From positions 1-64,000 of IMG/VR virus record IMGVR_UViG_3300014204_000125: 64,000 bases of DNA. One strand, written 5' to 3'. The stretch comes from a virus (lineage: Duplodnaviria; Caudoviricetes). Every line of letters begins with the position of its first letter. Position 1 is the stretch's first letter. The notes under the pieces are model-generated. The model was not told the origin of the DNA. It did no database searches and was given only the letters and a program-made list of their open reading frames with translations. Position numbers and translations under genes: made by a program. This document shows positions 2,778 through 49,305 of this stretch, in pieces.

Positions 2778-5700
2778 TTAGTCTTTGAAATCTCCGTCTA
2801 CAAGGTTTAAGAAGAGGGGGTTATCCGCTTGTGTTTGTATCCCGGAACCAGAGTTTACCCAGACTTCAAATCTCATCGGGTTATCCCCCATGTTGACAAA
2901 CTCTACTTTTATGGGTTCCGCGTTGGCTACGCCGGAGTTAGTTGAGAGCTTTCCCCATCTGTTCTGGGTCAGAACTTCAATATAATTCGTAACACTCGCC
3001 TGAACCCTCTCACTTGCGTTCATTGAGCGGAAGAATGAGTTCGTCGTGATGCCTGAGTATGTTGACCATGCGCCTGCACCAATCTTGGTTCGAACCGAGT
3101 AACCCCAGATATCATCGGTTGCTAAATGGTTCTCGTCGGTCGTGACTTCGTCCCATGCAAACTGAACGCCATTCAATTCGCTCGATGTCGATATGGTTCC
3201 GACTGCGTGTGGTTTAACATTTACTGCGGTAACGGTCGCGGCGGCGTTTGAATAGTTATCCGCATAGTCGAATGCTTTTGCGAAGTATGTCACATTTCCG
3301 CTATTCGTCGGGGTTGTTGTGAACTCATTCATTTCGCCTTTGTAAACATATCCGGGGGTTCCCCAATCCGCGTCTGTGGGTCTAATTTCGTATCCCGCCA
3401 CGCCAGAGTTATCATCGGTCGCGACGCCCCATGTCCATCTAATTTTAGTCTGAAACAGTGCGGCGAATGTCGGCACCGTTATTGGCGGAATTGAATCGTA
3501 TTTGAAGGAAAAAGGAGCCACAGCTTCGTTGCCTGCATTGTCTATTGCTTTGATTTGAACCGTCTGGCCGCTCTGTACTGCCGGATTAAGCGTAACGCTC
3601 TGGGGGCTCGTTGCTGTCGCCCAAGCGCCACCGTTCAGTGAATACTGATACCCCGCCACGAGGCTTCCCCCGATATCGGTTGCACTGAAAGTTACATCTA
3701 CCCCGCTATTGTGGGTGTATCCGTATTGGTTAATATTCGATACGGCTGATATGCCGAGAACGGGCGGTGTGATATCTATCCAAACCGAATTACTCGCACT
3801 TGATAAATCTCCTTCTACCCCGTTTCGTTTAACTTGTCTTGCCTTGAAATTAACTTGAGTCGCAATATCAGCGGGGAAGGTGTATTTGAGATAACGATCT
3901 TTCGTGGCTTGCATGTAAGTATCCACGCTGCCCGAATTAACATACCACCAATACTCTTTGAAGTTATCGGTCTGGGTCGGGCTTGAAGTCGAGACATAAA
4001 CGCTGCGTCCGTCCTTGTAGCACACAGGGGTTGTCGGCGCGTCGGGGGTCACGATATCGACTTCTATCCATTTAGGTTCAGTGAAACTGTAATTACCCGC
4101 GAGATCGATGGACTTAAAAGTTAAAGAATGGACTCCCTGTGTTATGCCTGACTCGATGTAATTGCCCGTCCTTGAGTGGGGGTCGCTCGTATCGTATGTT
4201 ATGCCGGAGTTTGTGAAGGGTGTACCTAAATGGGCATCCAGCGATGCGAGGAGGCTATTATCATCGAGCCCCGCGCCCGCATCTGTCATTCCGAAATCCA
4301 CCCTGATCGCGGATGTGCTTCCGCCGCCCACCCCGAGAAGTCTGTCTGCGGTTATATCGGAGGTATAATCTGATATCAGGAAAGCGGGTGCAATACTGTC
4401 GATTAAGACTGCATTCGATAGCACGGCGCCGGGCGAATTCAAAGCCGCGTCATGCAGTTTGGTTGCTATAATTTTGGTGTCGATGTAACCGTTCGCGGGA
4501 ATGGTTTCCGAGAACGCAACTGCGGAATGGGAGTCAAGGTACGACCAACTTCCGCTATTTGTTCTGTAATACAGATCGAAAGTTTTGAAGTGTTCGGGCA
4601 AGGTTCCGTAATTGACCTGGACCCCGAGGGTGTCTTTCGATATCTGGGTCAGCACTATCGAGTCCGGGTCTGCGGCTTGTACGGTATCCACTTCGAATAC
4701 CTTCGAGTTTACGCCCGCGTTCGCCGCGCTATCGAGGGCTCTTATTTCGTAATTCCAAGTCGAGGTCGTGAGCCCTGAAAATATAAAGTATCCGCTATTT
4801 ATTCCACCCGAGAGTCCGGTAGTTTTCTGCCAATCCCCGGCGGCGTCTCCCGCTTTTGTGACTCTGCCCCAAACCTCAGAGAGATTGCTCGTCTCGTCAG
4901 TTGTCATCCAATTTACGCGAAGCGTTGCAGAGTTTATGATTGCGTAAGGCAGAAGTGCGGGAACTGTCGTTGTAGTATCGATGCTCGGGCCTACTGCGTC
5001 AACCGTGACTCCCGAGAAAACTACTGAGTCGGCGCCAGCGGTTTCGCGATAGTCAACGGGGCGAAGTTTGAAGTAATAACTCTTCGGCACCGCAGAGAGT
5101 TGACTTCCATCTGGCATTTTGTTTATTACGATTTGACTTGCTCTCCCGCGCCATGTCAACTGAGAGTCATCGGGAGTATTAAGATCGGCTGCGCTTACGT
5201 CTGAAATATAGAGCTTATACTCTTTCAAACGGGTTGCTGTTGTTCCCGACCACTGAAGATTTAATTTCTGTTTATCTCCGGTCGCGATGCAATCCGTAGG
5301 CTGTTTCAGAGTACCTTCTATTGTAATTGCAATAGGAGTATAGTCGGGGGAGTAATAATATTCTTCCATGTCTTTTTGACCGTAGAAATTCCAAAGTCCT
5401 TTGAACATCGGGGTCCTTTCTCGGTCGGCGATTGCTTTGACGCCATAATAATATGTCGTATCATCGTCCGGCGCTGTATCCTCGGGCGCATTAACCCAAA
5501 CACCATATAAGAAGGCGCTCGGGTTTTTTGTATTGCGGAAAACAGATATGCCGCTATTCCATGACTCCCCAGAATTTGTTCCGAAATATTTGGCCTCAAT
5601 TCCCATTACCTTACCGTAATACGAGGGATTATTCTGAAAATATTCTCTTGTGTTTTCGTATAACTGCCCCCACCTTAAATTTACCGTATTCGTAGAGCCT

Positions 5701-7256
5701 ATAAAAGTTCCGATAAGCCCCGAAAGAGTCGGAGGCACTGGGTTATAAGTAAATGACTCTTTTGCAATCAATTTGCTGTATTCAAGCGACTCTGTGGTCA
5801 TATTGCCGACGCCCGCAACTATTCTTAAATAATAGTTATTGGTGTCTCCATATTGAATAGCGGACTCGTAAGGGAAGTCGGTTAAAAGCACTGTGTTATG
5901 CCCGGAAAGGGTAATAACGTCTTTCGGATGCCAGGGCGATATCGTGCCAGCCGGATTCGATTTCCACGGCACATGGCAATACACGATTTGATCATCGCTG
6001 GTACGGCAAAACTCGAGGCGATAATCGGTTAGACTCTTTGCCATTATATCGGCGTCCCAGTCGATCTGAATTGGCATATCAAGATCACTTTTTGTATGGG
6101 TGATAGTGACAACTGGAGAATCAAAAACTGCACTCGTATTTACCTTGTTCGAAAACGAGAAAGAAGAGGCGTTCGCAGAAATGTCGAGGGCCCTTACCCC
6201 ATAGACATATGGCACTCCAAGCGTTATGCCTGAGTCTATAAATTCCGTCGGCCAAGGTTTATCATTATAATCGGCTTCCCCTATTTTAGAGTAATTAGCT
6301 ATTCCTGAGTTTGCAAAACCTCTATATATTTCGTACTTATTGATATCCCAGGCCCCATACGCATTCGGATCGGGTCGGCGCCAGGAAACACTAATAAGAT
6401 CCGCTATGTTTGTCGAAATATCAACTGCTCTGACATTCCTAACCGGGTTCGGCGCCGTGTAATCGCCGGCTGTAAAATGGGCTTCATCAGAATCCTCGGA
6501 GACGTTATTCGCGTGGTCGAAGGCTTGCATCTTCAGGGAATACCTTTTCCCGCGCACTAGCCCTTTTATCGGGGCATACCATTTCTGGGATGTATGCAGG
6601 CTCAATCCGCTTTTTAACACCAGAGTTTCCGCATACGCAGTGTCCGCGAGTTCAAAGGGTTTCGTATAAACCTTCATGTACGCGAAGTCGGGATCTTCAT
6701 TCTGTACGTATTCGAGAAGCCCGTGACAGGCATCCCCGAATGAATCTGTACGAACCCCATCGGTTACAACCACAGGGGTTACAGGTTTGTTCGGGATCGT
6801 ATTATCACGCGCGGAAATCGCGAATTGTTCCGATATATTTGAGTTTCCATTCGCATCCACGACTTGAACGTAATAAGAAACAACCTCGGTGGAACTTACT
6901 CCGTAATCTTCGTAATAAAGGGTTTCGCCTCTAGGGATCGTTGCTATTATAGTGCGGCCGCGATATATTACATATTTCTGTCCAAGCCCTTCATAATAAT
7001 GGCCGAGTTCATCGTGATCCACGGGGGTTATCGATATTGCAATCCTGGGCACCCCGTCGTTTGACTTCCTCGTATATTCAACAGATGGCGCAGCGGGGCG
7101 CACCATTTGGTTGAAGCGAGTCTCCTCTTTCCCAATAAAAGAAGGAGAGGATAGCCCATCAATTTCAGAGAGGAGGGGGCCATTCAAACCTTTGTTCTTT
7201 GAGCCCTGTATTTTATTTGATATCTGATTGTCTATTATTTGGGGTAGATTCGGCAT
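2778..7256 (-). CDS. Large tail-tip/central fibre protein with FN3/Ig-like repeats
   Basis: 1492 aa; repeated Y.V.A.D..GN and D.TPP beta-sandwich signatures; distal tail position. Confidence 0.75.
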   Translation of the reverse strand: MPNLPQIIDNQISNKIQGSKNKGLNGPLLSEIDGLSSPSFIGKEETRFNQMVRPAAPSVEYTRKSNDGVPRIAISITPVDHDELGHYYEGLGQKYVIYRGRTIIATIPRGETLYYEDYGVSSTEVVSYYVQVVDANGNSNISEQFAISARDNTIPNKPVTPVVVTDGVRTDSFGDACHGLLEYVQNEDPDFAYMKVYTKPFELADTAYAETLVLKSGLSLHTSQKWYAPIKGLVRGKRYSLKMQAFDHANNVSEDSDEAHFTAGDYTAPNPVRNVRAVDISTNIADLISVSWRRPDPNAYGAWDINKYEIYRGFANSGIANYSKIGEADYNDKPWPTEFIDSGITLGVPYVYGVRALDISANASSFSFSNKVNTSAVFDSPVVTITHTKSDLDMPIQIDWDADIMAKSLTDYRLEFCRTSDDQIVYCHVPWKSNPAGTISPWHPKDVITLSGHNTVLLTDFPYESAIQYGDTNNYYLRIVAGVGNMTTESLEYSKLIAKESFTYNPVPPTLSGLIGTFIGSTNTVNLRWGQLYENTREYFQNNPSYYGKVMGIEAKYFGTNSGESWNSGISVFRNTKNPSAFLYGVWVNAPEDTAPDDDTTYYYGVKAIADRERTPMFKGLWNFYGQKDMEEYYYSPDYTPIAITIEGTLKQPTDCIATGDKQKLNLQWSGTTATRLKEYKLYISDVSAADLNTPDDSQLTWRGRASQIVINKMPDGSQLSAVPKSYYFKLRPVDYRETAGADSVVFSGVTVDAVGPSIDTTTTVPALLPYAIINSATLRVNWMTTDETSNLSEVWGRVTKAGDAAGDWQKTTGLSGGINSGYFIFSGLTTSTWNYEIRALDSAANAGVNSKVFEVDTVQAADPDSIVLTQISKDTLGVQVNYGTLPEHFKTFDLYYRTNSGSWSYLDSHSAVAFSETIPANGYIDTKIIATKLHDAALNSPGAVLSNAVLIDSIAPAFLISDYTSDITADRLLGVGGGSTSAIRVDFGMTDAGAGLDDNSLLASLDAHLGTPFTNSGITYDTSDPHSRTGNYIESGITQGVHSLTFKSIDLAGNYSFTEPKWIEVDIVTPDAPTTPVCYKDGRSVYVSTSSPTQTDNFKEYWWYVNSGSVDTYMQATKDRYLKYTFPADIATQVNFKARQVKRNGVEGDLSSASNSVWIDITPPVLGISAVSNINQYGYTHNSGVDVTFSATDIGGSLVAGYQYSLNGGAWATATSPQSVTLNPAVQSGQTVQIKAIDNAGNEAVAPFSFKYDSIPPITVPTFAALFQTKIRWTWGVATDDNSGVAGYEIRPTDADWGTPGYVYKGEMNEFTTTPTNSGNVTYFAKAFDYADNYSNAAATVTAVNVKPHAVGTISTSSELNGVQFAWDEVTTDENHLATDDIWGYSVRTKIGAGAWSTYSGITTNSFFRSMNASERVQASVTNYIEVLTQNRWGKLSTNSGVANAEPIKVEFVNMGDNPMRFEVWVNSGSGIQTQADNPLFLNLVDGDFKD

Positions 7257-7268
7257 GGAGCCCTCCTG

Positions 7269-10200
7269 TTAGTTAAATAAGAAATTACGAGTGGTTCTGG
7301 CGTTCGAGGCATCGTCCCGATTAAACACGACTGCGGGGGTGCTTCCGATCGATACCGAAATGCAATCGATCCCGAGGGTGGGGAGATAACTCCTGTCGTA
7401 AACTGTACTCGCATATACGTCTTCATTAAACCCGCCCATATAAATAATGGGGTACATTCTCGCGTCATCGGCTTCGGTCGTGAACGTAGTTATATGGCGC
7501 TCCCAGCCGGCTCCCGGGGTGTATGTTATTCCCGAATTCATTGCGAGTCTCCAGACTCCATTCGTTTTCTGGGTTGCGATCGCGAATTTAGGGTTCCATA
7601 AATTAACGAGCTCTGTGCTTTTCAAGTAAGCCGCGAAGCAGTATTCCGTAGAAGCTTTGACCGGGATGGTGTCATTGCTATATATCAGGAAAGGGGTTCT
7701 CGGGGCGTCCGGTTTCCCGTTACTCGAATTTATTGTGATATCGGTACTGTATTTTACGAAACTCGCCCCGACTTTGACCCCGGGGGTAGTCTTGGCGTCC
7801 TTTGTTAAAACCAGCTCAAGAAATGATTTATTATCAAGCGCGCCGCCCGTGGGGGCATACGTGTAATCCAATCTAACAATCTGTTCCGCAGGGCGTGACA
7901 TTGTCATTCCGTACACGTTAGCCCAACTCGTTAAAAGATTTAACTGGGTGGCCTGAAGATTATTCATATAGAATGGTTTTGTGACAGGGGTCCAGCCTTT
8001 CACGACGATCCCGGAATTATTTATCCAGGAATCCAGAACAAAGGGTTTTCCATAATCCGGATTCGGGATCTTCGTCGGGGTTTCCTCTATCCAGAGCCCA
8101 CCATTATTCACGACATTTTTGCCGGCGCTTTTCGTAATATTTACGACCTCGCCGTTGATTAAAAAAGCATTCTTAATCTGGAGTTGATATTTACCTGAAG
8201 GCACATACTGACCCTGGGTGTCCGTATAGTCCCAATTTATGAACTGGACAAGCGCCGGGGTCGTAATCCATCTCGGGGTGTTCGATGTGGCTCCGTCCGC
8301 GCGCAATGCGTTTACGTCTTTTCCCGTATTATCCTGAGCGCAGCAGTCAAGATAAACCTTATCGTTTACATCCTGAACCACATCATTAATAAGGAGATCG
8401 AGAGGCACGGTCAAGAGATCACCGACATGGCCTTCATCCGGGGTCAAATCGCCCCACTGCATTTCGTAGGTATCCACATCAAGCCCGCTATTAACGAGGC
8501 TCTGGGTATATGTGGTTTCAAGATCAGACGCGCCCTGGGCCGAGGTGATGTTGACCAGACTTATTTTCCGAGTCGTGACTTCGACTTGATAATAACTCGG
8601 GGTGGTCAGATTCAAAGGGGTCCCATCCGGGCTCGCGAGCCAGTTGAATTGTCCCTGTCTGAACCAGATATCAAAAGTATTGTTATAAACATAATTTGTT
8701 TTTGAATTCGTAGGATAGAGATATAGTTTATCGACAAGGGCGCCGAATCTCTCTTCGAAATTAATCCCGCAGTCCCATTTCAATCCATTCTCTCTCTTAT
8801 ATACCCCGGGTTCCATTATCGTCTCTTCGATCGGCCATGCGTAGATTTCATTCCGACTTCCCGTGATTCCTTTGGGATATCTCACCTTCATCGCAACTTT
8901 ACGTTTTACTGGAATCGCAAAATTGAAAACACAGTAATGTTTAATCGAATTTATTACGCCAGTATTTGTAAACCCGGAATAGGACTGCACGAGAGAGTTA
9001 TCAGATTTCTTGAATACGTCCATACTCCAGTCGTAAATACCGGGAGGATATAACCCGGAAGGTATCTCGGGCGGCTTCGTATAAGTCTTCGCCGGCGGGA
9101 CCGAGGACAAAGATAATTTGGTATCATACGCGATCGGGGTTTCCGTGGAAGCCACCCCCTGAACCCAGAGTTCGGTTTCCGCGTACATATCATTTTCAAC
9201 ATCGATCAGAGTTAAGCAATCCCCGATTTGAATATACGGATTTCCTAATATTGACGCGCCGGCCTGTCTCGCATTCTTGCGGTGTGTGTCCAATTCACTC
9301 GCGCTCATCCAGTCATTTGTAGCCTTATCGGACACGTTATCCTTGACGATGAGCATTTCTTTTTTGTACCCGATATAATTATAAGGGATGTCGGCCGTGA
9401 AACCTTCGATCTGACAAACAGATAAATCATAGGGAGTATTGTCCGCAAGTTTTGCGTTTATATAAAGTTTTTTTAACGAATATAAAATAGATCCGCCAAT
9501 AGGTTCCAACCTTAACACAAGTCCCGCATTTGTCAAATCGGATTGGACTACCGTGTGGGTTGCCACAGCAGTTATAACGGCGCCATCGGAGACTCCCGAT
9601 ACTGTAATTACCGTACCGAGAGGAGTATTCCCGCTTAGGTATAATATCAGAGTGCGAATATCCGCCAAAATCTCATAGTTCCCAATAATTACTTTATTCG
9701 TTTGGCTCGTTACAAGCGTCTGGTATTTAGTATATTTCCCGTCCATAAGGGAAGAATTGGCATGGGTTAAAGTATCTAGATTGTTTATAACACATGTCAC
9801 GATACTGGCGCCGCCGTGGATTGAATAATTATCCGCACTCTTGGAAAGCAGCGGACGCTGAGACGCCGGCTTGCCGAGAACAATTACACTATTTCTTATT
9901 TCAGACGAGTTATCGATTACATTGTCCGTCCTCATATCGAGACTTGCATTGAATGTCCCCGAAACAGTTTCCTCGTCTGTATTCAAATAAGAAAACCCGT
10001 TGAAATAACAAGTGGTATGGTCGTTAGGATCCATTGCGACAGCCCAAAGGTAGTCGCCCAAGTACGTTGTAGTATCCGAGTTCAATGCGCTGTAAAGTTC
10101 AACCTCCGCGTATTGATACGGCGATAATTCCGGCACCGCTACGTTCGTGGCTACGACTTTCCAATTTCCGTCCTTATAGACTTGGACATTAACTTCACAC

Positions 10201-11411
10201 GCCTCTGTTTTTGTGGCAAGGGATATAAAGCGCCCTTTTATGACTCTTGCATTTGTCAGAGCCGAAATAGAGGGTACACTATCGCATCCCACCTGGTCCG
10301 AAAGTATCCAATACTTCCAACCCCAGACATGATTTTCCTTCGCTTCGACATCGCTGAAATCGTTATTTCCGCCCACCCATGCGTACTGCCGGCATCCCTT
10401 TATTGTGAGACATCCCGTTTCACTGAAAAACATACGAAGCCCAAACTCTTCGCAAAGCACGATCAGGCAATCCCAAAGAGATTTGCCGTAATCAAACTTA
10501 TATTTAGCCTCATCAAGTTTTTCGGAATCAATGCCTTGGTATATCGTCTTTTCAATCCGGGAGGTTTGTGCGGGAACTGAAGGGTCAGTCACAAAACTCG
10601 GGATGGGTCTGCCCGGGACCATATTCGCAACCGTCGTATCCGATGTGACATAGTCAAATATTGTTTTGCTTTTCATGAATGGGTATGATGTAGCGTGTCC
10701 GAGCCGCATCGTGGCGGAATCGTTGAAACTAATGCTTAACCACTGCGCCAGGACTGGGAACTTCGCTTTTATGCAAATATCCCGAATCGCGTCTTTTAAA
10801 AGCCAGTTATCGTATGCCGGGACATAAAGTCCGAGCAACTGATCATTATACAAATTGTCGGGCTGAACCCTTTCCGAATCAGCCGCGGCATCCCGGTATG
10901 AATTTATATCGGGATATCCGTAGTTCAGAGCGTTCATGAATATTGTTGAGAAATCAACGCAATTTATTACGAGTTCATCGGATTCCGCATTCGGCACGAT
11001 GTCATTCACTACCCCCATAAACCTCTGAAGCACAGACGAGTTCTCCGGGATTATTGTGGATGCGTATCCGAAATAAGCCTTGACAAGATATCCTTTCCCG
11101 ATCGTGTGTGCCGTGACAGGCGCGCCGGCGATCGTGGTTCGCGTTGCGTTTACATAATTGTATTCGTAATAGGAAAGCGGAATATGAATCGCGAGAGTTT
11201 TGGCCTGTCCTATCTGTGTGTTCTCTGTCATTGCGAAAGGGAACACTTTGATCATCGCAGGATACTGGCCCGTAGAATTATACACTCCCACATATTCTTC
11301 AAGGGAGCCCGCATATATTTCAAAGTAATAATGAGAGCGCGCTATTTTCGAATAATTGGTAGTATTCAATCCCAGGGTCGCATCTATTATACTTACGTCT
11401 TTCGGTAACAC
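7269..11411 (-). CDS. Baseplate hub (Tal-like) protein with C-terminal carbohydrate-binding-like domain
   Basis: 1380 aa; follows TMP and Dit-like genes; hub-like segment SLWDCLIVLCEEFGLRMFFSETG; C-terminal IPVKASTEYCFAAYLKS...WERHITTFTT resembles a CBM. Confidence 0.65.
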   Translation of the reverse strand: MLPKDVSIIDATLGLNTTNYSKIARSHYYFEIYAGSLEEYVGVYNSTGQYPAMIKVFPFAMTENTQIGQAKTLAIHIPLSYYEYNYVNATRTTIAGAPVTAHTIGKGYLVKAYFGYASTIIPENSSVLQRFMGVVNDIVPNAESDELVINCVDFSTIFMNALNYGYPDINSYRDAAADSERVQPDNLYNDQLLGLYVPAYDNWLLKDAIRDICIKAKFPVLAQWLSISFNDSATMRLGHATSYPFMKSKTIFDYVTSDTTVANMVPGRPIPSFVTDPSVPAQTSRIEKTIYQGIDSEKLDEAKYKFDYGKSLWDCLIVLCEEFGLRMFFSETGCLTIKGCRQYAWVGGNNDFSDVEAKENHVWGWKYWILSDQVGCDSVPSISALTNARVIKGRFISLATKTEACEVNVQVYKDGNWKVVATNVAVPELSPYQYAEVELYSALNSDTTTYLGDYLWAVAMDPNDHTTCYFNGFSYLNTDEETVSGTFNASLDMRTDNVIDNSSEIRNSVIVLGKPASQRPLLSKSADNYSIHGGASIVTCVINNLDTLTHANSSLMDGKYTKYQTLVTSQTNKVIIGNYEILADIRTLILYLSGNTPLGTVITVSGVSDGAVITAVATHTVVQSDLTNAGLVLRLEPIGGSILYSLKKLYINAKLADNTPYDLSVCQIEGFTADIPYNYIGYKKEMLIVKDNVSDKATNDWMSASELDTHRKNARQAGASILGNPYIQIGDCLTLIDVENDMYAETELWVQGVASTETPIAYDTKLSLSSVPPAKTYTKPPEIPSGLYPPGIYDWSMDVFKKSDNSLVQSYSGFTNTGVINSIKHYCVFNFAIPVKRKVAMKVRYPKGITGSRNEIYAWPIEETIMEPGVYKRENGLKWDCGINFEERFGALVDKLYLYPTNSKTNYVYNNTFDIWFRQGQFNWLASPDGTPLNLTTPSYYQVEVTTRKISLVNITSAQGASDLETTYTQSLVNSGLDVDTYEMQWGDLTPDEGHVGDLLTVPLDLLINDVVQDVNDKVYLDCCAQDNTGKDVNALRADGATSNTPRWITTPALVQFINWDYTDTQGQYVPSGKYQLQIKNAFLINGEVVNITKSAGKNVVNNGGLWIEETPTKIPNPDYGKPFVLDSWINNSGIVVKGWTPVTKPFYMNNLQATQLNLLTSWANVYGMTMSRPAEQIVRLDYTYAPTGGALDNKSFLELVLTKDAKTTPGVKVGASFVKYSTDITINSSNGKPDAPRTPFLIYSNDTIPVKASTEYCFAAYLKSTELVNLWNPKFAIATQKTNGVWRLAMNSGITYTPGAGWERHITTFTTEADDARMYPIIYMGGFNEDVYASTVYDRSYLPTLGIDCISVSIGSTPAVVFNRDDASNARTTRNFLFN

Positions 11412-11424
11412 CTTTTCGCTCCTT

Positions 11425-11802
11425 TTACGACTGCGAAATTATTCTGACTTTCATGGCTATCCCCCAGAGGATTTCCCCGTCTTGTGATGTCTTTAGATGT
11501 TTCGCAATAAATTCGATTATTTGGAGAGTGTAATCGATTCCAGACTCCTGATCCTGAAACACAACATTCATAAATTTAGGGATGCTTTCTAAAAGGGTTT
11601 TATTGGTCTCGTCCGTGAGTTTCCACTGGATCGTTCCAACCTCATACGCCTCCCGGGCAACATAGGAATCATTCGACCCAATCCCCTTCGGCATCGTGTG
11701 TTTGACCGAATTGTACTTGGGGCGAAGATCTTTTGTCGTGGGGCCGTACACAGCGACTTGGTTCGCAGGGGCCCACTGGAATATCCATGTGCGCGCGCTC
11801 AT
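11425..11802 (-). CDS. Small tail protein (Dit-like by position)
   Basis: Start refined to the ATGA overlap with the upstream stop; synteny only. Confidence 0.5.
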   Translation of the reverse strand: MSARTWIFQWAPANQVAVYGPTTKDLRPKYNSVKHTMPKGIGSNDSYVAREAYEVGTIQWKLTDETNKTLLESIPKFMNVVFQDQESGIDYTLQIIEFIAKHLKTSQDGEILWGIAMKVRIISQS

Positions 11803-12200
11803 ATCAACACCCGATTCCATTTCAGCGTTATAGAATACGCCGTTTTATTGCCCTTCAAAGTTAAACCCTCGAGATGCGAAATCGTGGAATCGATTATTTC
11901 TATGCGATAGTTTAATCCGGAATTATAGTATGCCCCATAGAACCCAGAGAAGCCCATTTTTGTACCTCGTGTAAAAGAAGCTAGCGTATTATATAAAGAT
12001 GTCCCGGACTGTACTAAAGGCCAGATTGCCGAGTCTATGATGTTCATTTTAATCCCACTCGGGCTCACCCATTCGTTTGTGAAGTAGACAGGTTTCCCGA
12101 AACCGGGTTTAAATAAACCATATTCCGGCTCCGATGATTCGATCGAAGCCGGACCTAATGGCAATCGGGTTGTATTGAAGTAGAATTTCGCTCTATTCAT
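11799..12200 (-). CDS. Small tail protein (Dit-like by position)
   Basis: 133 aa directly after TMP. Confidence 0.5.
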   Translation of the reverse strand: MNRAKFYFNTTRLPLGPASIESSEPEYGLFKPGFGKPVYFTNEWVSPSGIKMNIIDSAIWPLVQSGTSLYNTLASFTRGTKMGFSGFYGAYYNSGLNYRIEIIDSTISHLEGLTLKGNKTAYSITLKWNRVLI

Positions 12201-12201
12201 A

Positions 12202-15200
12202 TCAGCCTACATTTTTACTCGGGGTTGTGAAGGTAGCCAAGTTTCTCTGATACTCCGCGACCCCATCGCTTATCGATCTCGCGACCTGGGAAGAATTGGC
12301 TCCCGAACCCACCTGAATAGTAAGTGTTCCTATCTGTACCGCCGAGGCATTTGCTGTGGCCTGAGCCTTTGGCATTTCGAAAGCAGTGGGCGCATTGAAT
12401 ACGCCTTCACTGATCTTCATAAGTGCGAGAGTATTTCTATCCAGTGCCTCTGTGTTTTTGGTCACGGGATAGAACTCTCTCTGTGGGGGCGGGGGTGGGG
12501 CTTCATCGTCTCCGCCTCCACCGAACAGGCCACCCAGAACCCCGATGATCGCGCCCGGGATTCCACCCGACATAAATCCAGTAAGCCCGCCCGCGAGCGC
12601 ACCTGCGCCTTTAGATTTCGTGGCTTTCCCTACCCCGTATCCCACGAGCCCGCCGGTGAGTGTTCCCATGATTCCTCCACCACCGCCGAATAGTCCACCC
12701 GATCCGGATTCTGCCGCAGATGATAATGAATTGGCTCCGCCTTTTGTGAACCAACTTCCCGCATCAGCGCCGCCCCCGCCACCGAATGCGCTCATAAGCG
12801 AACTCCCGATCGAACCCATACTGCCACCCGAGGCCGCATTTACGACATTGAATACAGTGCTACCGCCGGCGCCAATGAAACTACCCACTGAAGAATTTCC
12901 TGCCGCAGAGAACATAGACTTGCCGCCCGAGAACAATCCGCCGAGAGCCGGGACTGCACCCGCTAACGACATCGAGTTTGTTGATTTGGATCCACCGCCG
13001 CCGAACAGACTTCCGAATATCCCGCTTCCTCCGCCGGCTCCGAATAGCCCACTTAAACCGCCGTCAACAAGTGCGCCCGCGATCTTGTCGAAGATTTTCT
13101 TTATGACTGTATTCCCGATGTCTTCGAGAACCTTTTTCCATTTATTCGTGGATTCATTTACTTTATCGAGACTTTCCTTGGTCTGTTTAATCTGGTCGTT
13201 TACCTGACGGTACTTATCGCGAGCCGCGTTTATTTTGTCAATGTTTCCCGTTTGTTCCGCACCCGCGACATCCCCGGAAGCCATGCTCGCATCGCCCTGA
13301 AGTTTTGTAAGCTGTGCGTTTATCTCGTCGCGCTTTTTGTTCTTCTCGTCCCGCTCTTTCATTAGGGTTATCGGGTTAAAGAGTTCATTCAGTATTCCCG
13401 AAACCTTATTGATCGCTGCGAGTCTCTGGGCGGCTTCCCCCTGTGCCTGAATGAGTTGGAGCCTTTCCTTTTCTGACTCCACGACTTCCTTCATCTGTAG
13501 AAGATCGGTATTCGTAGTTTCAAGTTTCTCAATGGCTCTCGCTATGCCTTGTTTTGCCGCCTCGTCAGTATCCACGGCAAGCATCTTAGCTTCGAGCCCC
13601 GCTTTTATTTCCTGAACTTTAATCGCATACTCGCGCTCTTTGAAGGCAATGAGCTCTTTCTGCTGGCGCAACTGGAATTTAACATCATCCGAGGGATCGT
13701 TGACACTTCCCCCGCGACGGGTTGACTCGAGTTTCTGCTGGAACGCGAAGCGATTCTCCGTGGCTTTTTTGGCCGCGGTTTGCTGTCTCTCAAGGTTCTC
13801 TTGGATATCCACTTTGATCCAGCCGGGGGTTGCCGCTTTTTCCTCTTCCATTTTGATCCGGGCCGTGTCCGACATGCCCTGATATTTCTTCCTATTCTCA
13901 TCGGACAATCCCTTATCCCCGGCGTAGCGAGCGTACATCTCCATCTCGCGCTGGTAGTCTGCGGTCTTCCGGATCGATTTCATCTCTTGACTGGAGAGGT
14001 ATTTATTGACTTCTTTCTCAAGATAGACTTGCTGTTCTTTGAGGACGTTATATTTAGCCTGCTCGGCGTTGATCCTGGCCTGTGCGTCGAGCCCTTCCAT
14101 GCGCTCGGCTTTGCGGGCTGCGCCACCGCCTCCAGACGCCTTAGTTTTCGAGTATTCAATTAAAGATTTGCCATACAAAGCCAACTCTCTTGCTTCGGAG
14201 TTGCTTTCTGAATTTGCTCCCCCTGCTTTCTCTAAAGCAGACATAACGCCTTCGTACACGACTCGAGCTTTTGCTTTCTCTTCGATTTGAGGATTGGTTA
14301 AGGTTCCGCCTTGTTTTTTCTGCAAAGCATCAAATGATTCCATCGTTTTTTGAGCTTCTTTGGCCTTTGGAACCCCAATATCAATAATTTCTTGGATCTT
14401 TTCTTTTATATTTGGCTGGGCGGAAACCGTTTTTTTTGTGCCCATTAAATATGTAAGGGCTGTGTCCAAAATACCAGCGCCCTTACCGAGTCCCATAAAC
14501 TGAGCCCCGATATTTATTATCCAATTCTGTCCTGTCAAATTAGACAGAGAAGTGATCAAAGAGTTTATTGCAGATGTAAAAAGATTTATTGAATTTGGGA
14601 TTAACTGTAAAGTATTATAAAATTCAGTCAATTTCTCTTTTGTAACAAGCGTTTTACCGCTCGCATCGACCATCCCCGCGCTATATGCGTAATACGCAAG
14701 ATTAATATCCGACAGTTCTTTTTTTGTGTCAGCAATTGCATCGGCAAGTTTCATTTGTTCTTCTACTCTGCCTGTTCTTCCCGCCCTATCGTATTCGTCA
14801 TTTTGCTTTACAAGAAGCGCATTAATTTTATCCATATTTTCTTGTATAGACATATAGGTGGAAAGGGACTCTCCCATAAATGAACCCGAAGCCCGAGTGT
14901 TTAACCCGCCCTTTTCTGCGTTTTCCTGTATTCGAGCCATTGTGAGTTCTATCGTATTCGAAATACTTTCGGTCAAAGGACCAGCCTGTTTGGGTTTAAT
15001 ATCCGACATTACTCCTATAATGTTTTTTATGAGCCCCACCGCATCATCTTTTACTTTTCCGGCGAGAACGGCAAATTGAGCCGCGTCTTGCTTCAAGAAA
15101 ACAGAAAGCGGGCCCTCTTTAATTTCCTTTTCTTTTTCAAATAAACGAGTTAATTCCAAATACCTTTCCGAATCAATTCCCCAATCGGCAGCTAAAGTCG

Positions 15201-17523
15201 TGTTTCCCTCCGGTGTGGAATAAGGTTTTCTCTTCGCATATCTTGCTCTTTCATTTTCAGATATACTTCTAATTGAAGCCATATCTTCAAACTGGGATTG
15301 CATTTCTCTTACTTTTCTGTTTTCTAGTCTACCGCTTTCAGGGATGAAAGTTTTAAAACCCTTGACAATATCATCTATCGGAGGTCCACCCGCTTCGGGC
15401 AATATACCCTGTTTTTGGAGCATTTTTAGATTCTTTTCGGTTTGGGCTATTTTGATCTGCCCGTTTTCAATATCAACCTGTAACCCCTTTTCCAGAATAA
15501 GGGTATTTAAATCTTTATCGGAAAGACCCGACAAAGCGTTTGGGAGGTTAGCGGTTTTTTCTTGAATAGTTTTAAATTTATTAAGTTCTTTATTTACATC
15601 GCTCATTGATTTTGCAAAAGCATCATTCTCTGCCGTTGACTTTTGCATCTCGGCTCTATTTTTAGCCCATACTGAAATAAGTCCGGTAACAATAGCGAAT
15701 ACAGCCGCAACACCTACTTGAGTTGCAGATAGTCCCATAATTATAGGTTTAAGCCAAGAAAGGGCACCAACTGCCATTGCGCCAATTCCTGCGGCAAGCG
15801 TCGCGACAGCCGCCGCCATCGCATATGCCGCCGCACCACCTTCATTAAAGCTCTTGGTTACAGATGTTAAAGCTGGATATATATATTGGGAAACCGCCGA
15901 AGCCATCTCTAATCCGGTCTGTTTAAATACTTCCCACTGCCGAGATAATTTTGACATCTCAGTCATGTTGGCGCGTTCAGCGAACCCAAGAGAATTGTGT
16001 TGGTTAATCATCTGGGTAGAAACTGTTTTCCAATTATTCATTATACCGAGGAAAATGTTTATCTGGCGCCCCGCAGCGATGGTTTCGCCGACTTGTTTTC
16101 TCTGAACATCAGTTAAGTTTTCCCATCGTTTTGCAATTTCTGTCAAAAGATATTCGGAAGAAGATATATTCCCGGCTTGATCTGTAAAATTGATATCACT
16201 TAAAGGAGCAATCGATTTGAGTTTTTGCATTGAACTCAATCTCTGAACCCTTTCCAAAATAGTCTTCAGGGCATTTCCGATTATGTCTCCTGACTGCCTT
16301 GTCTTTTCAGCCGCAGCGGCAACGAGTCCGTTGAAGAATTCGAAAGAAGATCCCGTAGCCTGAGCAACAGCACCCGCTTTAAGGAACGCTTCAATTAACT
16401 CTTTCGCTGAAACCGCTGATCTCGCCTGAACGATCGCAAGCTTATCCACGATAGTTGAGGACTGATTTAGATCCATATTATAAACTCGGGTCACGGCTGT
16501 GATTGCAGAAACCGAATCCTTAAATGATGTCGCAGCAATATTGGAAGCTAATAAAGCAGATTTTGTAACAGCTAAAATCTCATTGACTTTTAACCCCTGT
16601 TGAGCAAAGGTTACATAGGCTTCAAGGATTTGACTTGAAGTTTGACCGTAAGTTTTTGAAAGATCATATAGACTTCCTCGAAGCATTCCAATACTTTCGG
16701 TCATAGGCAAATATTTTCTGATATCGATAAATTGCTCTTCCGCGTTTCCAAGTTCCTGAAGAGTACCAAGTAAAGTTTTATGAGCCTGAGAAAGCAAGAG
16801 AAACGAACCATAGTATGTCCCGAGTTTCCCTGCTGCATTTTTAAGGGTTTCCATGGATTTCCCGAAATCTACCCCGGCCTGCTGGAACCAAGTGAGAGGA
16901 GGACCTTGAGTCACAGCGGCTTTTCCTCCGCCTGTTGCCGCATTTACGCCCCCTGCCGTCACTCTTATATTCGCTCCCTGTGGCATCGACCCCATTACAT
17001 TCGCAACTTGTTGCATCATGGGGATTGCTGTCTTGGCATTGGGAGCCACGCGCGCGAGGTTGCGGAAAGATAAAGCTAAATTATTTATCTGCCGAGCCAT
17101 CTGACCCAATCCCGACGCTGCCTGTGGTCCCATAGTGGCGTAAGGCGCCATTGTGGTCGCGAGACGAGCAAGCGCTGTTTCTAACCTTGGGATCATCCCG
17201 ACATCGACCTTGGCGAGTCTTTCGAAGGCGCTCGCCGCGGTCAATAGCATTCGGGCCATATTCCCTAAGTTAGCAAGATTGGTTACGCCGGTTGCAGAAA
17301 AAAGAGGACTCGCGGAAAGGCGCCGGCTTACATTTTCGGCTGCATTTGCGAACCGAGTCATTGTGCCTTCTATACCTTTAATTTTTGACTGGGCGTCCCC
17401 AAGAGATCTAAGCCCGCCCGCCATTGCCGTCATAGACTTCGCCACAGCCGCCATATTGACGCTGGCGCGATCGTCCATGATCATTTCCATCATCCACGTT
17501 ACTTTATTCTGCATATCGGCCAT
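12202..17523 (-). CDS. Tail tape measure protein
   Basis: 1773 aa, helical Ala/Lys/Glu-rich, TP901-type core (TRQSGDIIGNALKTI, IAAGRQIN), Gly-rich hydrophobic C-terminus; follows the chaperone pair. Confidence 0.93.
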   Translation of the reverse strand: MADMQNKVTWMMEMIMDDRASVNMAAVAKSMTAMAGGLRSLGDAQSKIKGIEGTMTRFANAAENVSRRLSASPLFSATGVTNLANLGNMARMLLTAASAFERLAKVDVGMIPRLETALARLATTMAPYATMGPQAASGLGQMARQINNLALSFRNLARVAPNAKTAIPMMQQVANVMGSMPQGANIRVTAGGVNAATGGGKAAVTQGPPLTWFQQAGVDFGKSMETLKNAAGKLGTYYGSFLLLSQAHKTLLGTLQELGNAEEQFIDIRKYLPMTESIGMLRGSLYDLSKTYGQTSSQILEAYVTFAQQGLKVNEILAVTKSALLASNIAATSFKDSVSAITAVTRVYNMDLNQSSTIVDKLAIVQARSAVSAKELIEAFLKAGAVAQATGSSFEFFNGLVAAAAEKTRQSGDIIGNALKTILERVQRLSSMQKLKSIAPLSDINFTDQAGNISSSEYLLTEIAKRWENLTDVQRKQVGETIAAGRQINIFLGIMNNWKTVSTQMINQHNSLGFAERANMTEMSKLSRQWEVFKQTGLEMASAVSQYIYPALTSVTKSFNEGGAAAYAMAAAVATLAAGIGAMAVGALSWLKPIIMGLSATQVGVAAVFAIVTGLISVWAKNRAEMQKSTAENDAFAKSMSDVNKELNKFKTIQEKTANLPNALSGLSDKDLNTLILEKGLQVDIENGQIKIAQTEKNLKMLQKQGILPEAGGPPIDDIVKGFKTFIPESGRLENRKVREMQSQFEDMASIRSISENERARYAKRKPYSTPEGNTTLAADWGIDSERYLELTRLFEKEKEIKEGPLSVFLKQDAAQFAVLAGKVKDDAVGLIKNIIGVMSDIKPKQAGPLTESISNTIELTMARIQENAEKGGLNTRASGSFMGESLSTYMSIQENMDKINALLVKQNDEYDRAGRTGRVEEQMKLADAIADTKKELSDINLAYYAYSAGMVDASGKTLVTKEKLTEFYNTLQLIPNSINLFTSAINSLITSLSNLTGQNWIINIGAQFMGLGKGAGILDTALTYLMGTKKTVSAQPNIKEKIQEIIDIGVPKAKEAQKTMESFDALQKKQGGTLTNPQIEEKAKARVVYEGVMSALEKAGGANSESNSEARELALYGKSLIEYSKTKASGGGGAARKAERMEGLDAQARINAEQAKYNVLKEQQVYLEKEVNKYLSSQEMKSIRKTADYQREMEMYARYAGDKGLSDENRKKYQGMSDTARIKMEEEKAATPGWIKVDIQENLERQQTAAKKATENRFAFQQKLESTRRGGSVNDPSDDVKFQLRQQKELIAFKEREYAIKVQEIKAGLEAKMLAVDTDEAAKQGIARAIEKLETTNTDLLQMKEVVESEKERLQLIQAQGEAAQRLAAINKVSGILNELFNPITLMKERDEKNKKRDEINAQLTKLQGDASMASGDVAGAEQTGNIDKINAARDKYRQVNDQIKQTKESLDKVNESTNKWKKVLEDIGNTVIKKIFDKIAGALVDGGLSGLFGAGGGSGIFGSLFGGGGSKSTNSMSLAGAVPALGGLFSGGKSMFSAAGNSSVGSFIGAGGSTVFNVVNAASGGSMGSIGSSLMSAFGGGGGADAGSWFTKGGANSLSSAAESGSGGLFGGGGGIMGTLTGGLVGYGVGKATKSKGAGALAGGLTGFMSGGIPGAIIGVLGGLFGGGGDDEAPPPPPQREFYPVTKNTEALDRNTLALMKISEGVFNAPTAFEMPKAQATANASAVQIGTLTIQVGSGANSSQVARSISDGVAEYQRNLATFTTPSKNVG

Positions 17524-17528
17524 ATTTT

Positions 17529-17801
17529 TCAGCTCCTGTTTGCTCTTCTTTTTATCTCTTCTAGTTCACGTTTGCGTTGTCTATCCATTAAAAACCTATC
17601 CAATTCGTAGTCGTTGTCCCAGATATCATTGCCCGGGCGATCCTCCCCCGTGGTTTCAGTTAAGCCGTCATAGAAAGCGAGCCAACGCAACATTTGAGCC
17701 TTATTAAACGAGATTTGATAATCCTGGCCCGGGAAGATTAAGCCGATGTTTCCTGATTTGCAGGCTTGGTATCGGAACCACCATTCCGGATCACGGGCCA
17801 T
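17529..17801 (-). CDS. Tail assembly chaperone C-terminal extension (gpT-like, via -1 frameshift)
   Basis: Overlaps the upstream ORF in the -1 frame, just after T TTT TTA. Confidence 0.75.
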   Translation of the reverse strand: MARDPEWWFRYQACKSGNIGLIFPGQDYQISFNKAQMLRWLAFYDGLTETTGEDRPGNDIWDNDYELDRFLMDRQRKRELEEIKRRANRS

Positions 17802-18484
17802 GCGTCTAAAAAACGCTCCTCAATCCCTTGCCAGAACTTCGTTGCGACCTTTAATACCGCGCGGAGTTCGCTTCCATTTTTGTATTTCTGGATATCGTCG
17901 TAATGCTTGAATATGGGCTGATCATTCTCGTCCACGAAGCAGAGGGAGAGTTTTACGAACTCCATTTCTTTGCCGAGCAGCATTTCAAGGCATCCACAGA
18001 AAAGACCCTCGAGTTCCATTGTCTTTCCCGTGTATTCCTGCATTGCCTTTTCACATTTCTCGCAGAGATCCTGAAAGTCCTTGGATACGGTGTTGTCGGG
18101 GTTGACCTTCATGCCCATCGGATACGAATTCATCTCTTTGAAATAATCCGAAAAGCGCTGGGCGACTTCTTTGTAATTTTCTTCGTCCTCTTTCGTCCAG
18201 TCCCCCGATTTCTCGAGTTTCTTGGCGAGAACTTTCCTTGACACATAGCCTTCGTCGATCATTTCGATATAGCGCCTCGCGTATCTGCGTCGGATAACGG
18301 TTTCCGCGTTTACATCCGCATTTTTGATGAACGCGGATTTCCCGTCGAACATGATTTCAATTTTGTCCTGGATCAGAACATCCGTTGCGTCTGCGTACTT
18401 CGACTCTTCCTTGGCCTCAGCCTTCTGAACATCGATTAGGGTCATTTCTTTTTTTGCCACTGGGGTTGCCTGCGTTTCTTCCAT
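17738..18484 (-). CDS. Tail assembly chaperone (gpG-like)
   Basis: Acidic helical protein between tube and TMP; GGAGG RBS supports ATG at 18484. Confidence 0.75.
   Translation of the reverse strand: MEETQATPVAKKEMTLIDVQKAEAKEESKYADATDVLIQDKIEIMFDGKSAFIKNADVNAETVIRRRYARRYIEMIDEGYVSRKVLAKKLEKSGDWTKEDEENYKEVAQRFSDYFKEMNSYPMGMKVNPDNTVSKDFQDLCEKCEKAMQEYTGKTMELEGLFCGCLEMLLGKEMEFVKLSLCFVDENDQPIFKHYDDIQKYKNGSELRAVLKVATKFWQGIEERFLDAWPVIRNGGSDTKPANQETSA
17807..17813 (-). other. Programmed -1 frameshift slippery heptamer T TTT TTA
   Basis: CGT TTT TTA GAC; a -1 slip gives TTT AGA CGC ATG GCC, in frame with the 17529-17801 ORF. Canonical gpG/gpGT position. Confidence 0.8.
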
Positions 18485-18507
18485 AATATCCTCCAACTCT
18501 ATATTTT

Positions 18508-18541
18508 TAGGGGCGAGGGTCGCATGGATCCCCGCCCCTAA
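18508..18541. other. GC-rich intergenic hairpin after the tail tube gene
   Basis: taggggcgagggtc...gatccccgccccta; no U-tract on the - strand, so a stabiliser/attenuator is more likely than a terminator. Confidence 0.5.
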
Positions 18542-18566
18542 TACCGGGATTATTTAATTATTGAGA

Positions 18567-19829
18567 TTAAAGCACAAAGGGATTGACGCCAGTGCCGCTC
18601 ATTATGAAGTTGTTGCCTTCGAGACTAAAGGTGCGAGTTCCGAACGATGCTCCGGCTTTTCCGTCGCTGTTTTCGCTCGCGACTTTCATTCCCGACATCG
18701 TTACCTTGCAAAGCAAATTCGCGGCTAAATGCACAGTCTCGCTATTGTAGAATGACATCGTGACAACCATGTCATTGACATAGTTATTCGCGTCAACCAC
18801 CGTCGAAGAAGTCCCGACCATCTGCTTCATCATTTCGAGATCGTTATCGTTGATGGTGATGTCGGCTTTAACGGGAACGGGATACGTGACAACCCTGTCA
18901 ACATCCCTCTGGGTTCCCATTTCGTTCGAAGCGATACGGCCGAGATTAAGGGTAGCCGCGACGCTCTGGATACGCAACGATTTGGTTTCGGCTTCCGTGG
19001 CTTTATGCAAACTGATAACGATAGCGCCCCTGCGGAGTCCGCCGCGTTCGTTGGTGTCAGCGAGTCCCGGGAAAGCCTGAGAAGTGTCTTTCGTGAGGAG
19101 CATGACTACCCTCTCGGTGCCATCGAAGGTCACGCCGGCGATGGCTAACGAGTTCGTTGCGAAGCTCGGGGTGACTTCTGTCGTGTAAGAATCGATTCTG
19201 TTTACGAACGCTTTTACGAAGGTATAGCCGCTCGAGAAATCGGCGTATCCGGGATCCCATGTCGCGGAACTTGTCGCGGCAATGGGATAGCACACGACTA
19301 CCCTGATGTCTTTGGAAGCCCCGTCGTAATCGGTTTTCGAATCGCCGGCGAGGCTGAAGGATTCGGTTGCTACGCCGTCGGTGGCAGCGCGGAGTTCGTA
19401 TGAATTCACGAACATACCGGGAACATAAGCCGATCTTGAGAGAACGGTATCGTTGAACTCGGAATACCTTGCCACTATTTCAGGCATATTGTTCGTGTCG
19501 AAGCCGAGGGTCGCATCTCCGTTTATGTCCATACCCGCGGAGGTCATGGTGAAGCAAAGGCCCGAGTTAAGCTGAGGCATCCAGCCCGAGTTCTTGTAGC
19601 CGGCCATCAGCATGAAATTGCCGACGTATCCGATTGCGTTGAAATCGAGTTTAAGTGAAGTGTCGGGGAGATTCGATTTACGTTCGATAACGCCGCCGTC
19701 ACCCATCTGTTTCATGTCTTCGTTGCTCAGATTTACACCGAGCGCTCCGCCCTGAAGGCGCTTGAGAGTTAAGCCGTTGATTTCGATTATTTCGCCTTTT
19801 CCAAGCATACCAGTCGTTTTTCTAGCCAT
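18567..19829 (-). CDS. Major tail tube protein
   Basis: 420 aa, beta-rich, strong AAGGAG RBS, located upstream of chaperones and TMP. Confidence 0.75.
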   Translation of the reverse strand: MARKTTGMLGKGEIIEINGLTLKRLQGGALGVNLSNEDMKQMGDGGVIERKSNLPDTSLKLDFNAIGYVGNFMLMAGYKNSGWMPQLNSGLCFTMTSAGMDINGDATLGFDTNNMPEIVARYSEFNDTVLSRSAYVPGMFVNSYELRAATDGVATESFSLAGDSKTDYDGASKDIRVVVCYPIAATSSATWDPGYADFSSGYTFVKAFVNRIDSYTTEVTPSFATNSLAIAGVTFDGTERVVMLLTKDTSQAFPGLADTNERGGLRRGAIVISLHKATEAETKSLRIQSVAATLNLGRIASNEMGTQRDVDRVVTYPVPVKADITINDNDLEMMKQMVGTSSTVVDANNYVNDMVVTMSFYNSETVHLAANLLCKVTMSGMKVASENSDGKAGASFGTRTFSLEGNNFIMSGTGVNPFVL

Positions 19830-23270: not shown

Positions 23271-23746
23271 TACGACACCCAGCTCCCGGAAGGCAGACTC
23301 TCATAGTACGCCCCGGTGTGAAGATTTTCATTGACATCGTTTAGGATCCTGAGATATTCGGAATGGAATTTCTCAGCCACGAGTTTTGAACCCGCCATCG
23401 CATTTGTCGTATCGATCGAGTCTCTTCCCGATTTAACCTTAACGGCTTCCCCGGCCTTCTCGTCCTGTTTCTTGCCGCTCGCGCCTTCAAGGACTCGATA
23501 TGTCACGAGTTCCCTTAAATCCCCGCGGCCCGATGTAATATTGCCGTCTACATCGACATCATCCGCGATCGTTGGGAAAATCTCATAATCGATCTCGTTG
23601 AGAAACCGAAATTTGATCAGTTTTCCGGTATCCGCGAATATGGCATCGAACGCAGAATCAATCCGATCGCAGAGTTCGATGTCGGTCTCGGTTGTCGAGA
23701 TGAGCCCTTTTATCTTACGAATTATTTTAGCAGTCGTAGTGTCCAT
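23270..23746 (-). CDS. Head-tail adaptor
   Basis: Start at the TAATG overlap with the GT stop, GGAGG RBS; helical N-terminus plus VKVKSGRDSIDT hairpin. Confidence 0.55.
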   Translation of the reverse strand: MDTTTAKIIRKIKGLISTTETDIELCDRIDSAFDAIFADTGKLIKFRFLNEIDYEIFPTIADDVDVDGNITSGRGDLRELVTYRVLEGASGKKQDEKAGEAVKVKSGRDSIDTTNAMAGSKLVAEKFHSEYLRILNDVNENLHTGAYYESLPSGSWVS

Positions 23747-49297: not shown

Positions 49298-49305
49298 TTC
49301 ATCTC

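Follow-up and report, generated by a model that had tools for sequence, protein, structure and literature searches.

In the phage record IMGVR_UViG_3300014204_000125 (IMG/VR, Caudoviricetes; 115,335 bp with a terminal repeat of 123 bp), of which positions 1-64,000 form the window, i.e. the whole 64,000-nucleotide stretch analysed here, a tail protein of 1492 aa is enriched in the tripeptide Asn-Ser-Gly (NSG). The enrichment goes beyond composition, is specific to the order of the three residues and is free of homologous repeat context: NSG was observed 12 times in this protein against 0.65 expected from composition. We use the working names 'tip' for this protein, 'hub' for the 1380-aa and 'tube' for the 420-aa tail protein. 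Considering that the same phage carries seven glycosyltransferase (GT) genes, NSG on the tip may be a glycosylation acceptor tag for the phage's own enzymes, as a preliminary description of this DNA had proposed. We favour this explanation as a tentative one, without regarding it as probable.

NSG enrichment in the tail proteins

Not one of 2,000 shuffled versions of the tip reached 12 NSG, and NSG is its top tripeptide by enrichment (Poisson p 6.3e-12). The three residues go together: NSG makes up 12 of the 24 xSG, 12 of the 19 NxG and 12 of the 19 NSx tripeptides of the protein, where x is any residue. A dipeptide-aware expectation for the tip is 3.35, above the composition-only value. Residues 1-315 carry no NSG. 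Starting at residue 820, the sites come at roughly one per domain, spaced 76-122 residues apart over the last seven domains (positions of all sites in Table 1). Both Asn codons (AAC and AAT), both blocks of Ser codons (7 TCN and 5 AGC) and all four GGN codons of Gly are used, and since the codons vary between sites, the NSG excess does not stem from a DNA repeat.

The five other orderings of Asn, Ser and Gly sum to only 2 in the tip, which excludes loops rich in these residues as the cause. Near variants are not enriched either (DSG 1, NTG 0, TSG 0, SSG 0 and GSG 1). The p value alone means little, because a tripeptide excess is common among comparator proteins built of immunoglobulin (Ig)-like repeats: 45 of 149 have some tripeptide at p <= 6e-12, and 54 of 149 have one at p <= 1e-10. 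In all of the latter, however, the tripeptide lies in homologous repeat context, with a flank identity of 0.17-0.89, whereas the flanks of the tip NSG sites are as unlike one another as those of random positions (0.072 against a background of 0.062). Exceptions to this rule are site 1283 and a group of sites that share the C-C' hairpin of FN3 domains. Counting this group once leaves 7 events against 0.65 expected (p 5.5e-6, or 0.044 corrected for 8,000 tripeptides), and the full value of 6e-12 survives correction for 8,000 tripeptides times ~150 proteins.

In the other proteins of the tail module the excess is real but weak. The hub has 3 NSG against 0.45 expected and, in addition, NTG at residues 816 and 1028, all of these lying inside its C-terminal third; taken together, N[ST]G occurs 5 times against 1.0 expected (p 0.002). 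The tube has 2 NSG against 0.24. The single NSG of the 133-aa tail protein, against 0.09 expected, is not significant alone (p 0.09), and the tail fibre has one (2130-2138) against 0.71 for the part in the window (3..2765) or 0.86 for the full 1228-aa protein. Pooled with a 131-aa open reading frame (ORF) that has none, the hub, tube, 133-aa protein and fibre reach 7 NSG against 1.66 expected (p 0.0016), a modest excess. Outside the tail module NSG is near expectation. Head-module structural ORFs have none, and the sole NSG of the head module lies in one GT, at residue 14, near the N-terminus. The NSG signal is, therefore, essentially that of one protein, with a weak excess in hub and tube.

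The counts given in the preliminary description (12 in the tip, 3 in the hub, 2 in the tube, one each in the 133-aa protein and the fibre, none in the tape measure) were all reproduced on recomputation, as were the variation of codons across both Ser blocks and a tip expectation of roughly one. Its proposed checks by shuffling and by comparing virion with other ORFs also came out in favour of an enrichment. Its generalization to exposed tail proteins as a group was too broad, since it applies to the tip and more weakly to the hub and tube, but not to the fibre. The absence of NSG from the tape measure, which it had used as a contrast, is uninformative (0 against 0.73 expected, P ~0.48).

NSG also stands apart from the familiar glycosylation motifs, as had been stated. 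In the tip, N-x-S/T occurs 11 times against 16.4 expected and the Bacteroidota motif D-[ST]-[AILVMT] 11 times against 7.6. Apart from a marginal excess of N-x-[ST] in the fibre, no tail protein is enriched in this sequon, and D-[ST]-[AILVMT] is not enriched in tip, hub, tube or fibre. The xSG[I/V] variants noticed earlier are present, with SGIT found four times in the tip, at residues 342, 1017, 1036 and 1401, as DSGIT, NSGIT, ESGIT and YSGIT. DSGIT and ESGIT occupy the canonical FN3 position D-x-G-[LI]-x-x-G ahead of the tyrosine-corner strand. These two are a family feature and lie outside the NSG signal.

Homologues and position of the sites on the fold

The tip was matched by 420 proteins at E <= 0.001, mostly along its Ig-like repeat region. 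In 151 other proteins, nearly all with the Ig-like repeats of the tip, NSG occurs at expectation (128 against 127.3), and their xSG tripeptides are mostly G/D/T-SG. By column frequencies across 834 aligned instances of the domain, conservation is limited to the turn Gly (residue 1285, 58%; residue 1320, 80%), with N and S as minority residues at the family columns aligned to these two conserved-Gly sites. For the C-terminal 370 tip residues, the closest homologues (P0021, P0015, P0045 and P0079, at 30-36% identity) have NSG at 0 of 5 aligned sites and keep xSG only at 1283, as T/V-SG. Tip residues 1123-1492 (window 2781-3890) occur as stand-alone proteins of ~230-600 aa in metagenomic contigs, of which P0015, P0021 and P0045 start with MA[VI]YTAEYTF, so that the tip has the appearance of several fused modules.

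A similar picture was obtained for the tube, whose homologues at 28% identity, on contigs of 125-126 kb, are without both NSG sites and read YNS[ST]R at the first. Right after the two sites, at residues ~91-110 (window 19500-19560), the tube has an 18-residue insertion that is missing from its three homologues. The metagenome search yielded three distant relatives of the phage at ~28% identity (L004, L005 and L007), and their comparison covers the tube, the tape measure and the hub start, amounting to 11-21 kb of the 125-kb relatives. L005 and L007 (SDBS01000007.1 and SDBT01000064.1; 125-126 kb) are the nearest relatives for these genes, at ~28-30% identity, and appear to represent the nearest known phage lineage. 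Their gene order and size recall Annadreamy-type Streptomyces phages. The tail ORFs read from the distant relatives hold 2 NSG against 3.4 expected, and no GT4 was found in the region read, within ~20 kb around the tube gene.

Other searches returned little. No relatives of tip or hub were found among viral contigs, where an alignment-based scan gave two loci sharing one Ig domain only; a phage collection held no match for the tip and none for the tube homologue P0155; a scan of genome contigs for relatives gave no match; and no homologue was found for the C-terminal part of the hub. Judging from these comparisons, NSG is specific to this lineage and no property of the Ig-like domain family. 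In the preliminary description, homologues from phages without GTs were expected to lack NSG: the homologues do lack it, at all five tip sites and both tube sites compared, and for the tube homologues the GT content was read over the 20 kb around the tube gene.

For the location of the sites, a structure model of tip residues 956-1492 was built from 33 aligned sequences, with a predicted local distance difference test (pLDDT) score of 75 overall and above 90 for residues 1155-1445. An AlphaFold2 model of residues 293-1492 made without an alignment had a pLDDT of 30 and was discarded, which places the seven N-terminal sites outside the usable model. In Foldseek searches the model of residues 956-1492 matched tandem FN3/Ig chains (titin, MyBP-C, gp130, fibronectin and GhpA, with E down to 1e-12), and the tip is thus predicted to be a tandem FN3/Ig-like protein of the beads-on-a-string type.

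According to DSSP run on the model, sites 1183, 1283, 1318 and 1440 lie in coil directly ahead of a strand (pLDDT 80-95), and the confidently modelled sites occupy A-B, B-C, E-F and F-G positions of the fold. Site 1107, like 1318, uses the conserved turn Gly of the family. Sequence landmarks assign sites 316, 561/567, 900, 1107 and probably 1016 to the FN3 C-C' hairpin, with the pattern Y-x-[IVY]-[YW]-[RV]...NSG, and place site 820 ahead of strand E. The C-C' hairpin is, therefore, shared by 5-6 of the 12 tip sites, and the remainder lie at at least five other positions. Across the 19 tail NSG sites, a hydrophobic residue follows at +1 in 14 and at +3 in 11, and NSG thus marks the start of a strand. 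In the model and by these landmarks, NSG sits in loops at strand edges, at several different Ig/FN3 positions. The surface loops that had been anticipated are compatible with the coil position of the four confidently modelled sites within residues 956-1492; the opposite case of one fixed FN3 turn, also considered earlier, describes about half of the sites.

Glycosyltransferases and possible readings of NSG

All seven GT genes of the phage are above curated Pfam cut-offs. Three of them, overlapping genes of family GT4, are inside the structural operon, and the three GT2 and the one GT10 genes accompany a sugar-nucleotide pathway whose Pfam matches comprise DegT, NTP_transferase, two epimerase/dehydratase genes, a split thiamine pyrophosphate (TPP) enzyme, HpcH, HMGL, HAD and an Fe-S protein. 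The GT4 trio has 0 predicted transmembrane segments, and the ORFs of the 115-kb genome have at most two, which argues against a phage-encoded route through Wzx, Wzy or an oligosaccharyltransferase. The solubility of the GTs fits cytoplasmic action on virion proteins, although host machinery may take part, and the GT4 trio are the prime candidates for reading NSG. Among solved structures, chlorovirus glycosyltransferase B736L (3oy2) is the closest relative of two of the GT4, those of 415 aa and 408 aa (23746-24993 and 26093-27319); the match is weak (E 1e-4) and spans nearly the full length of the 408-aa protein. Related GT4 genes are found in the cyanophages S-CBS4, S-EIVl and Mae-JY09, in Tetrasphaera phage TJE1 and in Streptomyces phages of ~125-130 kb. 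One of these Streptomyces phages, Annadreamy, has a GT4 27% identical to one of the trio and no NSG excess, the enzyme being too distant for an informative comparison.

Residue and order specificity, independence of homologous context, lineage restriction and position in putative surface loops together suggest that the motif is read by something specific to the phage. The GTs are the only obvious candidate readers, and glycosylation of mycobacteriophage virions by phage-encoded GTs is reported in PMC12363180 and PMC12619734, both citing Freeman et al. 2023; for these reasons we favour an acceptor tag, and infer the attachment of a sugar to NSG, the residue carrying it and the enzyme responsible. 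The phage lineage would have installed free-standing NSG repeatedly at loop/beta-strand junctions of the FN3/Ig-like domains of the tip, and more sparsely in the hub and tube, where a phage enzyme would read it. A soluble cytoplasmic GT, the GT4 trio foremost, would attach the first sugar to Ser (O-linked) or to Asn (an atypical N-linkage) in domains that have folded or are still folding, no later than during tail assembly, and the remaining GTs, supplied by the phage's own sugar-nucleotide pathway, would extend the glycan. The outcome would be about one glycan per Ig-like domain on an extended rod exposed to proteases and antibodies. In its most specific form, NSG might be an undescribed tag for a cytoplasmic, phage-encoded system that places its own rare-sugar glycan about once per folded Ig-like/FN3 tail domain, a proposal that we put forward with still more reserve.

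To our knowledge, virion glycosylation by phage enzymes has been demonstrated only in a few mycobacteriophages. If NSG is such a tag, target sites would be predictable from three residues readable in the sequence, and a simple co-expression assay for orphan phage GTs would follow. It would also bear on how exposed tail parts are hidden from proteases, antibodies and host receptors.

Several known systems share parts of this arrangement. The capsid of chlorovirus PBCV-1 is glycosylated by virus-encoded cytoplasmic GTs at non-canonical Asn sites. PBCV-1 thus resembles the proposed system in its host-independent viral machinery, in an acceptor context other than N-x-S/T, in methylated or rare sugars (the phage encodes an FkbM methyltransferase) and in the weak relationship of B736L to two of the three GT4; it differs in being a eukaryotic virus with its major capsid protein as the target and acceptors that are not NSG, and the homology of the enzymes is at the level of the GT4 family only. 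N-x-[ST] and the Bacteroidota D-[ST]-[AILVMT] are, like NSG, short linear acceptors with a hydroxyl residue and then a small or hydrophobic context, but NSG has Gly at +2 and so fits neither. Both of these systems operate outside the cytoplasm via lipid-linked glycans, and their export machinery is not encoded in this genome. Soluble transferases that modify Ser in strand-loop-strand beta-repeats, or in Ser-Gly, are known from the AAH/TibC autotransporter heptosyltransferases and from eukaryotic Ser-Gly xylosylation; their enzymes appear to come from families unrelated to GT4, and the folds are different.

The turns of bacterial Ig-like repeats of the Big_3 / Y_Y_Y type, D-x-x-S-G-[IV] and D-x-A-G-N, are a structural counterpart: site 1283 is identical to the former, 1318 and 1107 share the turn Gly, and the xSGI[T] variants are canonical FN3/Ig features. 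Most sites here are nevertheless off-motif with unrelated flanks, and the family itself has G/D/T before SG and NSG at expectation. Mycobacteriophages such as Che8, Corndog and Myrna, in the accounts of PMC12619734 and PMC12363180, are likewise tailed and carry their own GTs near or inside structural genes, with soluble enzymes that, in either case, would act on virion proteins in the cytoplasm and a proposed role in shielding exposed virion surfaces. Their glycans are described there as C-terminal on capsid and tail-tube subunits, whereas here the candidate site is an internal loop tripeptide in a tail protein with many Ig-like domains, absent from head proteins; their modification is demonstrated, whereas the one proposed here is read from the sequence, and the sugar pathway here is far larger. 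NSG tagging would be a new variant of this mycobacteriophage-type virion glycosylation.

A number of points weigh against an acceptor tag. We know of no glycosylation system that uses N-S-G, and a full-text literature search found no paper discussing Asn-Ser-Gly as a glycosylation site. In the phage itself, the fibre, its most distal part, has no excess of NSG, the head-module structural ORFs have none despite the GT4 genes being adjacent to them, and no GT is linked to NSG; in the sugar pathway, the TPP-dependent enzyme is split into overlapping ORFs (N domain 46290-46832, M and C domains 45013-46353, minus strand). The GTs could instead target DNA or host glycans. NSG is a plausible tight-turn sequence, and a structural role covers part of the count, since the FN3 C-C' hairpin holds about half of the tip sites. 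In the account of PMC12619734, citing Freeman 2023, the known phage virion glycans are at the C-termini of capsid and tube subunits, with no internal sequon. These points leave the acceptor role claimed in the preliminary description a possible rather than a probable one.

The motif might instead be a purely structural turn, with an Asn side-chain cap, then Ser, then a left-handed Gly, which would be this lineage's way of ending a loop and beginning a beta-strand in FN3/Ig-like domains and would stay unmodified, the GTs having other targets. It would agree with the coil right before a strand at all confidently modelled sites, the hydrophobic residues at +1 (14 of 19) and +3 (11 of 19), and the C-C' hairpin that, by sequence landmarks, 5-6 of the 12 tip sites share. 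Two of the sites use a Gly that the family conserves (58% and 80%), xSG[IVL] corresponds to the family motif D-x-x-S-G-[IV], and the motif is missing from head proteins and without excess in the fibre, neither being Ig-like-built as far as seen. We nonetheless consider a turn alone somewhat less likely than an acceptor tag, since the same domain family elsewhere has no NSG preference (128 against 127) and places G, D or T before SG, and the closest homologues do not have NSG at the orthologous positions. In 34 comparable hairpins taken from other proteins, a small sample, the turn reads either NG or DG, and NSG does not occur. N is preferred to D, and S to T, G or A, more strictly than turn propensities demand, and six or more topological positions of the fold carry a site. 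Even if merely structural, NSG would be unusual, as one turn sequence fixed repeatedly within a single lineage.

It is also rather improbable, in our judgement, that NSG is recognized or contacted by something other than a GT, be it another modifying enzyme, a docking partner for each domain or, as a weak binding site, a host polymer. The genome yielded neither a candidate partner nor a further modifying enzyme, the GTs being the only obvious protein- or glycan-modifying enzymes in it, and sites on different faces and positions of the fold fit a common docking geometry poorly. Such recognition would share specificity, lineage restriction and a free-standing context with the reading of a sequon, and the spacing given above for the last seven domains, near one site for each, would suit it; Ig-like domains on phage surfaces bind carbohydrates weakly. 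A statistical artefact, produced by searching many tripeptides in many proteins, by composition-rich loops or by internal repeats, is very improbable. The 45 of 149 Ig-repeat comparators with p <= 6e-12 and the dipeptide-aware expectation of 3.35 instead of 0.65 speak for it, but it is largely refuted by the flank-identity and permutation controls: flank identity is at background, unlike every repeat-driven case, and NSG outnumbers the other orderings 12 to a total of 2, in addition to a p value that survives correction and codons that vary between sites.

Genome setting

Every structural gene is carried by the minus strand. From high to low coordinates, the tail module runs through the tube, two chaperone-like ORFs, the tape measure, the 133-aa and 131-aa ORFs, the hub, the tip and the fibre; the right arm of the genome holds replication functions. 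Among the large tail proteins only the tape measure matches Pfam or PHROGs; tip, hub and tube, as well as the small tail proteins, had no match there up to an E of 5. Coordinates are collected in Table 1.

Table 1. Tail genes, NSG codons and glycosylation-related genes, in window coordinates
Feature	Position	Strand	Description
Tail fibre gene	3..2765, continuing across the record start (genome 114.3-115.2 kb)	minus	1228 aa after circularising the record
Tip, 1492 aa	2778..7256	minus	String of ~13 FN3/Ig-like domains; 12 NSG
Tip NSG, residue 316	6303-6311	minus	
Tip NSG, residue 561	5568-5576	minus	
Tip NSG, residue 567	5550-5558	minus	
Tip NSG, residue 820	4791-4799	minus	
Tip NSG, residue 900	4551-4559	minus	
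Tip NSG, residue 1016	4203-4211	minus	
Tip NSG, residue 1107	3930-3938	minus	
Tip NSG, residue 1183	3702-3710	minus	A-B loop (model)
Tip NSG, residue 1283 (DDNSGVAGYEIR)	3402-3410	minus	B-C loop (model); exactly the family D-x-x-S-G-V motif
Tip NSG, residue 1318	3297-3305	minus	Hairpin preceding the F strand (model); conserved turn Gly of the family
Tip NSG, residue 1440	2931-2939	minus	Preceding the last strand (model)
Tip NSG, residue 1468	2847-2855	minus	
Hub, 1380 aa	7269..11411	minus	3 NSG
Hub NSG, residue 974	8484-8492	minus	
Hub NSG, residue 1132	8010-8018	minus	
Hub NSG, residue 1292	7530-7538	minus	
Tail protein, 133 aa	11799..12200	minus	1 NSG
133-aa protein NSG, residue 93	11916-11924	minus	
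Tape measure, 1773 aa	12202..17523	minus	Pfam PhageMin_Tail, E 8e-26; 0 NSG
Putative major tail (tube) protein, 420 aa	18567..19829	minus	2 NSG
Tube NSG, residue 80	19584-19592	minus	
Tube NSG, residue 88	19560-19568	minus	
Three overlapping GT4 genes (415, 367, 408 aa)	23746..27319	minus	Pfam Glycos_transf_1, Glyco_trans_1_4; upstream of head-tail genes
Sugar-nucleotide pathway with three GT2, one GT10 and FkbM methyltransferase	39822..53924	minus	Pfam

The C-terminal end of the fibre resembles the self-cleaving intramolecular chaperone domain of tail fibres (…VSDRRAKKNI…GMIAQD…). Directly upstream of the GT4 trio, a 393-aa ORF (27733-28914, minus strand) was considered as a capsid gene and rejected, as it is without a capsid match; it matches the transposase PHROG phrog_12300 (E 4e-7), the same family matched by a split TnpB at 19985-21189. 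The latter, an IS605 OrfB/TnpB-like gene on the minus strand between the head-tail genes and the major tail gene, consists of two overlapping ORFs of 257 aa (HTH_OrfB_IS605 and OrfB_IS605) and 162 aa (Cas12f1-like_TNB) and looks frameshifted. The GT4 trio and the head-tail genes may, therefore, be flanked by two IS605/TnpB-like genes.

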